Below are positions 6,165 through 9,191 of a DNA stretch of 64,000 nucleotides, piece after piece (within the stretch, counting starts at the first letter, position 1; each line of letters begins with the position of its first letter). Source of the stretch: Macrostomum lignano. Taxonomy: Eukaryota. The DNA lies in contig NIVC01002869.1 of NCBI GenBank assembly GCA_002269645.1, positions 69,341-133,340 of the forward strand. Direction: 5' to 3'. Position numbers and translations under genes: made by a program. The notes beneath the pieces were generated by a model, which saw nothing but the letters and a program-made list of their open reading frames with translations, made no database searches and was not told the DNA's origin.

Positions 6165-9100
6165 ATGGCTCGAAGAAACCCTACAGTGCATCGCGATGTC
6201 AAGGAAACTGTTGGAATGTATACCATGGATAAAGATTTTAACACCTTCATTGAACACTTCGACCTTGTAACTCGCGAATACGGACTACAAAATCCAGAAA
6301 AGGCACTTCTTCTTCCTCCACTGTTAGAAGGTACTGCTCGAGAAATTTATGGCAAACTAAATGCCGCCGCACAGCAAGACTATCATACTTTAGTTACACA
6401 ACTGAGAGCACAATTCGCCAGATGTGGAACCAATCGATCTGTGCTTCTACACAAACTTCATAATCGAAAAATGAGTCCGACGGAATCCTTCCTTACTTTC
6501 GTCGATGACGTCCGCAAAATTATTAAAGCGTTGCACCAGCCACCACCACCGAACCCAGGAGCTCAGCCTATCGGACCAGCAGAACTAGCTGCACGAGAAA
6601 GACAACGCCTTGCTGACCAAGAACAAAGCCTAATCCTCCATGTCATTAATAATGCTCAACCTTCGCTGCGAGACAGGTTGTTAAGAGAAACCATTGAGAC
6701 AGAGGAACAATTAATTCGTTGCGGCATGCAATGGGAAGCAAGTGCCCCACTCCTGACTTCTCGTAGTAGTGATACGACACAATTGGGAGAACAATTGAGC
6801 AAACTCATGCAGCAGTACCAAACTTCTGCAATCATGCCACAGCGACAGAGATACGCTCCGCCACCCACTTGTTACACCTGTGGAAGAATTGGTCATTACG
6901 CCAGAGACTGCCGATCACGTGGCAATCCAAGACAATATAATGACAACAGAAGAAAAAATTGGACTCGTCCTCAAAATCGCAATTGGAACCCACCACAGAA
7001 TAGACAAGGAAATGCCTTGGTACCTTATCGACAACAAAGAAATCCTCCTCCTCCAAGACAGCCTACTCAGGTCCGCAGACAATATGCTCAAGCTATTGAA
7101 CCGGAATACACTCAAGTCATCGAACCAGAGTTTAAGATAGAGGATCTTATGCCGGATTTCACAATCAATGTCCTTGAGGAGTTTGAAAAACGAAAAGATA
7201 GCACAAGCAGCGAAAGTAGCTGCATGATGGATTCTCTGTTTGAAGAAGATCCACCCATTCCTACCTCTTCTAAAGCAAGTCCAGTCTCCCGAGAAAACAA
7301 AAGACAACAACAAACTATTTCTAAGCAACAAAGCAATCTATTTAAAGTTCCGACGATCGACAATCTTTCGGAAACTCACCGAGATGACAATTTCCAGGAT
7401 CGTAAAGAAATGACAACACTTGAAGAAGACAGAGATCCAGCAACTTCTCAAAACATCTTTGAAGAAAGCGTTGACATGTTGCAGGTCCTAGTCGACGATA
7501 TAGACCTGTCAGAAACACCTCCAACACAGGAACCAGACTATGAAAATATTGTCTCCCCTAGTCCAGTCCACGAAAAATGGAAACATGACAAGGCCACGAA
7601 CACACAATCTAACCATTCGACAGATGAAAAGTTCGTACAGACGGAGGATGACACATATGTTTCAATGAACCTAGACTATGAAAGCGAATATGATGAACCG
7701 ATAACAATAATGGAACCGGTTAACACTCCAACTGATGAGAATACAACTACACATCTTACCAATATATCAAAATCAACCAACTTTATGCGTCCGATGTTGC
7801 AATCGCAGCCACCCACACCATTACCATGTTCTAACAAATGGCACTTTTCGACTCGCCTTACTCCTCCGCCGTATCCTGAAGATAGTCATGACGAGATTGA
7901 AGACACTCCACCAGTACCAACAAGACGAAAGAAAAAACATCCGCTACTGCAATGCTTCCTCACGATCTTGATGATGGCAATTGTTCCCACGGTACTGCCG
8001 TCTCCATCTCCAATGATCTGTCCCACTGATGGAGACATCCAGCCAGTCATTTACAAGATTCCTACGGAAATCAAATGCAGTTACTTTAAGACAAACCAAA
8101 CCAAGCCACTACCACTAACTATTGAAATATACAAAGCAAATACAAAGAAGCATCGACAAATGGGAATTGTGTGCTTCCGAGACAAGGATGAAATTGAAAA
8201 GGTTTGGCTGGTACAATGGAACCGAATCAGGTATTGGCAAACTTCGATGATGGTATCACAAGAAGAATGCCTTCGGTGGAATCAAACTCTGTTTTCCGAA
8301 GATGGTCAATTAAAACTTCATGAGACGTCCGCCAGCGGAGCACAGCTATTTCGCACAAAAAATGTAGCCGATGGAAGATATGTCCATTATCATCAATCAC
8401 GATGGCCTACATACTCAGTCTACAATAGCTACCTCATCCGAAATGTTTTATTCTACCACAATCCATTTGACAACATGGAATCCTTACAGCTACCACTCGA
8501 CCAGTGTCACTACAGCTCTGGATATTGTTCTACCCCTAACTACAACAAAGAAGAAGCTCAAAATTTACCCCTAGCACCGATTTATTTCCATGACTATCGA
8601 TACCAAATTGAATATAGATCGGATTCCCGATATGAGGAGCCCAGCCGAACCCGCAAATATTTCACTGCATGGGAAGTAAAAACTGAAATTGACTGCAAGC
8701 TGCAAAAATATCACACTGTTCAAGGGAAACTGCTATCTAACACCTTCCTTGCCGACTCAGGAGATTTGGCTCTTACATTTCCAAAGCAACCAAGCTACAC
8801 ACACTTGAAATGTAAAAACAAGGACGAGCAACTAATCCTCTCCGACCAAGAAATACCAATCGCGCTTAAGGATATGGATAAGAATGTTTTCCTGAAGGTA
8901 GTAAATGGAACCTATCAGAGAAAAGATGTCATAGAACGACATAAGCGAGACCTACCTAAGCCTTCTCTAGTATCAGCACGCCTCGCTAATATCCAGGATC
9001 CACATCAACCTCAGTTCTATGTTCACATTCAACGTCTAAAACGTATCACTAACGACACTACATTCCTCCCAGACCTACAAAATCCAGACCACACAAAAAC

Positions 9101-9191
9101 AACAAATAAACACATTGCCACTGCACACGCCGAAACACAAACAACAAACGCACCACCTGTCGGTCATACGTACAACCTAAGACCTCGTTAA
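6165..9191 (+). CDS. Gag - Env-like ectodomain - integrase C-terminal tail fusion polyprotein (first ATG 6165; ORF track starts at TTG 6117)
   Basis: Retrotransposon capsid-like N-terminus (LLEGTAREIY..DYHTL..LRAQF..RKMSPTESFLTFVDDVR). CYTCGRIGHYARDC at 6870-6911. RRKKKH plus a hydrophobic segment at 7923-8000. Cys-rich domain with NQT, NQT and NGT sequons. RHKR at 8937-8948. VHIQRLKR and terminal YNLRPR. Confidence 0.9.
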   Translation: MARRNPTVHRDVKETVGMYTMDKDFNTFIEHFDLVTREYGLQNPEKALLLPPLLEGTAREIYGKLNAAAQQDYHTLVTQLRAQFARCGTNRSVLLHKLHNRKMSPTESFLTFVDDVRKIIKALHQPPPPNPGAQPIGPAELAARERQRLADQEQSLILHVINNAQPSLRDRLLRETIETEEQLIRCGMQWEASAPLLTSRSSDTTQLGEQLSKLMQQYQTSAIMPQRQRYAPPPTCYTCGRIGHYARDCRSRGNPRQYNDNRRKNWTRPQNRNWNPPQNRQGNALVPYRQQRNPPPPRQPTQVRRQYAQAIEPEYTQVIEPEFKIEDLMPDFTINVLEEFEKRKDSTSSESSCMMDSLFEEDPPIPTSSKASPVSRENKRQQQTISKQQSNLFKVPTIDNLSETHRDDNFQDRKEMTTLEEDRDPATSQNIFEESVDMLQVLVDDIDLSETPPTQEPDYENIVSPSPVHEKWKHDKATNTQSNHSTDEKFVQTEDDTYVSMNLDYESEYDEPITIMEPVNTPTDENTTTHLTNISKSTNFMRPMLQSQPPTPLPCSNKWHFSTRLTPPPYPEDSHDEIEDTPPVPTRRKKKHPLLQCFLTILMMAIVPTVLPSPSPMICPTDGDIQPVIYKIPTEIKCSYFKTNQTKPLPLTIEIYKANTKKHRQMGIVCFRDKDEIEKVWLVQWNRIRYWQTSMMVSQEECLRWNQTLFSEDGQLKLHETSASGAQLFRTKNVADGRYVHYHQSRWPTYSVYNSYLIRNVLFYHNPFDNMESLQLPLDQCHYSSGYCSTPNYNKEEAQNLPLAPIYFHDYRYQIEYRSDSRYEEPSRTRKYFTAWEVKTEIDCKLQKYHTVQGKLLSNTFLADSGDLALTFPKQPSYTHLKCKNKDEQLILSDQEIPIALKDMDKNVFLKVVNGTYQRKDVIERHKRDLPKPSLVSARLANIQDPHQPQFYVHIQRLKRITNDTTFLPDLQNPDHTKTTNKHIATAHAETQTTNAPPVGHTYNLRPR

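Follow-up and report, generated by a model that had tools for sequence, protein, structure and literature searches.

An internally deleted LTR retrotransposon of Macrostomum lignano that joins the N-terminal half of a predicted gB-type envelope to an integrase tail and descends from a gag-env-pol parent

The stretch of DNA analysed here (henceforth the window) comprises 64,000 nucleotides of Macrostomum lignano contig NIVC01002869.1 and holds, on its forward strand, an LTR element of 6,874 bp (4882-11755). Two LTRs of 917 bp each (5' LTR, 4882-5798; 3' LTR, 10839-11755) begin with TG, end with CA and differ from one another by two mismatches, while a 4-bp target-site duplication, CTCG, abuts them on the outside (4878-4881 and 11756-11759). 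A primer binding site (PBS, TGGTGATCTCGC) lies at 5801-5812 and a polypurine tract (PPT) at 10824-10835, both on the plus strand. The LTR also contains a GT..AG intron (5265-5574, plus strand), a leader splice whose joint is present in all three sequencing runs that we took as RNA and absent from a fourth; none of the four is recorded as RNA, and the assignment of the three is a guess. Pattern searches returned no heat-shock elements in the window LTR and 0 matches in the genome G000 for a tRNA that could prime from the window PBS.

Between the LTRs, an open frame spans 6096-9191, and its first ATG, at 6165, yields a single plus-strand ORF of 1,008 aa (6165-9191) composed of gag, a spacer, a signal peptide, an env N-half and an integrase tail. 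The gag portion (6165-6914) ends in a CCHC zinc knuckle (aa 235-250; PF00098, E 6.8e-07), and the capsid is assigned to the N-terminal gag region by position. After the spacer comes a hydrophobic internal segment (7941-8003; aa 593-613), predicted from hydropathy to be a signal peptide and preceded by a basic RRKKKH patch; a similar segment occurs in the other families examined. The Cys-bearing env N-half (8007-8948) terminates in a furin-type RHKR site (8937-8948; aa 925-928), and the last 70 aa of an integrase with the stop codon occupy 8979-9191. Downstream, also on the plus strand, are a conserved non-coding element (9209-9275) and two accessory ORFs: the Cys-rich, RING-like ORF2 (216 aa, 9323-9973) and ORF3 (199 aa, 10046-10645), which encodes a RING finger (PF13920, E 7.1e-08). 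ORF2 of the window copy has no RING match in Pfam; the ORF2 copy of a sister family matches zf-RING_2 at E 2e-4. LTRs of the TG...CA type, a short target duplication, a PBS and a PPT, as expected of Ty3/gypsy elements, are all present in the window, and the order protease, RT, RNase H, integrase is found in the full-length sister copies G000:C717 and C583 and is deleted from the window. By its Pfam domain types, the element is classified as a Ty3/gypsy-type LTR retrotransposon. The window copy does not hold an intact set of gag, env and pol, since 1,472 codons are gone, and is a derivative of an element that does.

The end of the ORF had been singled out in a sequence-only reading, which described RHKR followed by DLPKPSLVSA, then RLANIQDPHQPQFYVHIQRLKR, then HTYNLRPR and the stop codon, and ascribed this tail to the C-terminus of a Ty3/gypsy integrase. 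The ORF text reads exactly so. The tail is indeed an integrase C-terminus, as aa 939-1008 are identical at 70 of 70 positions to the end of the C717 polyprotein, downstream of its rve domain. With the end of P0001, a retroviral polyprotein in UniRef, the same 70 aa share 68% identity (E 2e-27); they have no significant match in the distant relative P0013 (E 1.2). Neither the isolated tail of 70-80 aa nor the env N-half alone retrieved a Pfam family.

The same reading had proposed that the fusion arose by an in-frame deletion from a parent whose single polyprotein had env placed between gag and pol, to be checked by finding full-length relatives, reading their domain order and aligning them across the junction. 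This check was run, and such a parental form exists. C717, a natural sister copy in the same genome, is 99.2% identical to the window before the junction and 99.7% after it, and has one unbroken ORF of 2,480 aa that encodes gag, signal, env, TM anchor, protease, RT, RNase H, then integrase, in this order (zf-CCHC, 235-250; TM segment, near aa 1191-1223; protease, 1310-1395; RT, 1635-1794; RNase H, 1859-1991; integrase, 2086-2258), with a Monjiviricetes_fusion match at 942-1069 whose E-value of 2.9e-4 falls short of the curated cut-off. The window protein equals C717 aa 1-938 at 930 of 938 positions and then continues with the last 70 aa of C717. When G000 was queried with the env N-half, 125 of 203 candidates were scored, many of them within open frames of 2,400-2,900 codons, and the motif order knuckle, furin site, TM, protease, RT, integrase recurred in all six further or same-family long ORFs, drawn from four divergent G000 families. 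None of the relatives examined has env downstream of integrase, the arrangement named beforehand as counter-evidence; env precedes the protease in every full-length relative examined. The order gag, signal, env, TM, protease, RT, RNase H, integrase in one ORF is thus shown for the full-length copies.

Protein cluster representatives include 69 relatives of the env, the closest named ones being Macrostomum lignano proteins, and one homologue (P0027) clusters with Meloidogyne polyproteins. In a domain scan of 20 of the longer relatives, 12 had an in-frame protease domain downstream of their env match and 11 a gag-type domain upstream of it, and env came before integrase in all four that have an integrase domain; two show neither the upstream gag-type domain nor the downstream protease, and P0015 has a protease upstream of the env match too. 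A 5.8-billion set gave one match among longer env-bearing proteins, a weak gauge of spread. Two distant gag-env-pol families in the genome (G000:C247, L029; C1189, L031-L032) have 27-30% env identity and a different PBS, and the C247 env bears a long Thr/Ser-rich, mucin-like insert ahead of its furin site.

What kind of envelope this is was judged on the full-length sister C717, whose ectodomain (aa 615-1190) was modelled with AlphaFold from a 63-row alignment (pLDDT 79). By Foldseek, the model matches herpesvirus gB in the PDB (E 1e-17) and nyamivirus G in BFVD (E 2e-23), and the env alignment profile retrieves EBV gB at E 2e-13. TM-scores against PDB chains are low (0.22-0.38); the similarity in fold is therefore supported by E-values and the sequence profile and not by overlap of the model as a whole. 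A retroviral class I Env (SU/TM) with a fusion peptide after the furin site was also considered and rejected, as all top structural and profile matches are class III. The gB-type ectodomain of C717 is flanked by signal and TM segments. Like the class III glycoproteins herpesvirus gB and Nyamiviridae G (PF24664, PF00606), it has a long central helix and conserved cysteines, and resembles them in fold and profile; it differs from them in sharing 10-15% identity, in being embedded in a retrotransposon polyprotein and, in the window, in being reduced to its N-half. On the strength of the model and these matches, we class the envelope as a fusogen of class III, akin to herpesvirus gB and nyamivirus G. 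When the two full-length copies, C717 and C583, were compared, the env halves had dN/dS values of 0.14 and 0.06; RT and integrase stood at 0.04-0.05, the gag capsid/CCHC region at 0.05 and the spacer between gag and env at 0.40. These ratios indicate purifying selection on env in full-length copies.

The deletion starts at aa 938, as does the long helix of the model; the N-terminal domains therefore remain in the window, while helix, C-terminal domains and anchor are gone. The earlier proposal that an env part and nearly all of pol were lost was therefore right about the loss and wrong in labelling the lost env part the TM subunit, since a gB-type envelope loses its central helix, C-terminal domains and membrane anchor instead. 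The prediction for the window env N-half, deprived of helix and anchor, is that it could not fuse membranes.

The deletion itself is sharply defined. Its junction (8976-8980) falls inside the interval 8949-8981 in which it had been predicted, and the 4,416 nt (1,472 codons) absent relative to C717 are flanked on both sides by the 5-nt microhomology GCACG. Among 30 matches to a junction probe, six span the junction at 100% and represent six loci; two of these (C301 and C2828) have a common flank, a sign of redundancy in the assembly, leaving five insertion sites. The five junction-bearing copies have distinct flanks, their own 4-bp target duplications and 0-2 LTR mismatches, and the 4,416-nt skip is also present in contigs of all four sequencing runs, which come from four studies. 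The deleted form has therefore itself been copied, and the window copy is young and recently inserted. In a census of the subfamily, defined as copies with LTR plus PBS at 98% identity or more, 11 copies were found: five with the window-type deletion, three gag-only, one with a third deletion and two of full length, one of them broken. With nine of 11 copies internally deleted, non-autonomous derivatives clearly outnumber their parent in this subfamily.

We are thus highly confident that the window holds a recent Ty3/gypsy-type insertion that lacks 4,416 nt of its sister's gag-env-pol frame, with template switching at the 5-nt repeat during reverse transcription as the likely origin and copying in trans by full-length relatives as its likely mode of spread, the latter judged from copy number. 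Reverse-transcription template switching at short repeats is the standard route to such internally deleted derivatives.

Is the open junction frame incidental, or was it selected? A soluble env N-half acting as a decoy or interference factor, or put to use by the host, might favour the deleted form. The frame is open in all five complete copies, the deleted form is the commonest in the subfamily (5/11), and junction contigs have a depth of 11-26 against 0-6 over pol in the three runs guessed to be RNA, a weak hint given how poorly contig depth reflects expression. Yet chance alone keeps the frame in one deletion of three, the copies, at 0-2 LTR mismatches, are too young for a test of selection, and deletion forms free of env, namely the gag-only form at three loci and C4582, spread or persist as well; we consider a selected junction improbable. 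Far less probable still is a splice, with the spliced message reverse-transcribed and then inserted: the family does splice within its LTR, but that intron is still present in the window copy, and the skipped part, which ends GC..CG rather than GT..AG and lies between the copies of a 5-nt direct repeat that leaves five letters ambiguous, is not a spliced segment. We give practically no credence to an assembly chimera, despite the redundancy of the assembly, or to a usual gag-pol-env parent whose env moved forward in the window copy alone, because the junction recurs at five distinct insertion sites and in four of four independent runs and env lies ahead of the protease in every full-length relative examined.

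Other rearranged copies accompany the window-type derivative. A second amplified derivative, at three loci (L061-L063; G000:C70, C1130, C3022), encodes gag only (268 aa); a 7-nt microhomology marks the point where its gag meets the end of ORF3, and in each of the three runs guessed to be RNA this junction shows up as a loose end. The third derivative, G000:C4582 (L041; 4,711 bp), has gag fused in frame at aa ~127 to the integrase tail. G000:C2129 and C262 have the interior of the window family with another LTR type and are recombinants between subfamilies.

Under the favoured reading, that of a deleted derivative copied by its relatives, the fate of the two proteins can be predicted. For the parent, hydropathy and motifs predict that env is carried into the ER by the internal signal peptide together with the C-terminal anchor, with gag and pol left in the cytosol; signal peptidase, furin and the element's own protease would separate the parts. 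A single ORF thus implies one polyprotein chain, passing twice through the ER membrane, as the source of Gag, Env and Pol. The window protein would yield a complete Gag and an anchorless env N-half, from which furin would cut away the 80-aa junction tail. The env-integrase fusion would then be a by-product, and the retained gag, LTRs, PBS and PPT would be what allows the derivative to be packaged and copied.

How unusual is this gene order? Sacco and colleagues are said to have reported in 2022 a continuous gag-env-pro-pol ORF for nematode endogenous retroviruses (NERV). These elements, as cited in PMC13524379, have the same flipped env-pol order as the window family; they differ in their nematode hosts and in an env that is ~25% identical to that of the window element. 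Chary and Hayashi 2026 (eLife, PMC13524379) state that the elements of Nematoda, Bryozoa and Platyhelminthes have no ENV other than the gB type, in the order GAG-ENV-POL, and credit the nematode case of flipped order to Sacco et al. 2022. The gag-env-pol order is thus unusual and real, yet already published for flatworms, nematodes and bryozoans, and our data confirm this rare order. The published errantiviruses share with ours the env between gag and pol, its gB type, the LTRs and the multiple young copies; that survey deals with intact elements, truncated ones having been removed, whereas the window copy is internally deleted. In the searched main text of PMC13524379, the terms 'polyprotein', 'deletion', 'non-autonomous', 'splic' and 'RING' have no occurrence, and single-ORF topology with its two-pass polyprotein, amplified deletion forms, RING ORFs and the RNA element receive no discussion there. 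Likewise, the part searched of a survey of Macrostomum lignano LTR families (PMC12801592) does not mention env order.

Within the same species, Supplementary file 1 of PMC13524379 lists Platyhelminthes_Rhabditophora_Mlig_errantivirus_2 (ENV_HSV type, 16 copies, LTR ~864 nt), whose 12-nt PBS (GCGAGATCACCA) is identical to that of the window element. The LTR lengths, ~864 against 917 nt, set the two apart, a distinction made by length and not by direct sequence comparison. G000 contains a sister family with ~865-nt LTRs and the window's PBS, which has 63% env identity and ~69% DNA identity to the window family; by LTR length and PBS, Mlig_errantivirus_2 is therefore likely this sister family and not the window family. 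The window family is thus likely a further family beside the published one.

The conserved element after the stop codon is, in our view, a more interesting lead than the gene order. It is a 67-nt sequence (9209-9275, plus strand) that starts 18 nt after the polyprotein stop, is predicted to form an H-type pseudoknot with two hairpins and is nearly unchanged across families whose coding DNA is ~69% alike; the distant families C247 and C1189 are without it after their stops. Searching with a pattern that fixes its two invariant blocks gave 97 matches in G000 and at least 123 in metagenome contigs, where it forms the 5' edge of a ~150-nt repeat in 15 loci. It also occurs in an RNA-virus contig, 13 nt after the stop of an RdRp-like ORF, and in a 212-kb contig of a large DNA virus, where it is intergenic. 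Among 20 hand-picked copies, the pseudoknot helix has changes on both sides at five of seven pairs, and its covariation score is 0.318 against 0.118 in shuffled alignments (0/500), a score inflated by kinship and by the hand choice of the 20 rows. Compatibility with the pseudoknot was seen in 61 of 121 matches, against a shuffled mean of 27.

Rfam 15 has no match over the element at E-values up to 5 (window and eight other loci), and blastn gave none in phage records. A by-eye fit to the layouts of HDV, twister, pistol and hairpin ribozymes failed. The core 15-mer was not found in the literature searched, nor was any description of the element, the primary papers on HDV-like ribozymes lying outside that search. 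HDV-like ribozymes are known from an insect iridovirus and from the 5' ends of retrotransposons (PMC8256844 and PMC5786205), so the element may be a known motif. A loose end at its start was considered as a splice to ORF2 and proved to be sequence belonging to the sister family, joined at the element that both families have; hence no splice to ORF2 is shown. The position of the element upstream of two RING-type ORFs suggests that it is a putative definer of a subgenomic RNA. Tentatively, and with more doubt than conviction, we propose an undescribed mobile pseudoknot that defines 5' ends, a putative self-cleaving ribozyme or exonuclease block common to these env-bearing retrotransposons, a short dispersed metagenome repeat, one RNA virus and one large DNA virus. 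Here it would set free a subgenomic RNA encoding two RING-finger accessory proteins, a virus-like mode of expression for a gag-env-pol element. A new functional RNA class common to retroelements and unrelated viruses, if true, would matter more than the gene order.

Finally, a second splice donor at window position 5703 joins, in one run, AG-preceded host sequence ~6.8 kb downstream of the C525 copy; this joint, seen in one contig, is likely an LTR-driven chimeric transcript. Elsewhere, the window contains what we take by appearance to be host exons: those of a WW-domain protein (16309-17118, minus strand), of a cytosolic 5'-nucleotidase-like gene (20791-24129, minus strand) and of a small Cys-rich surface protein (56637-57206, plus strand).
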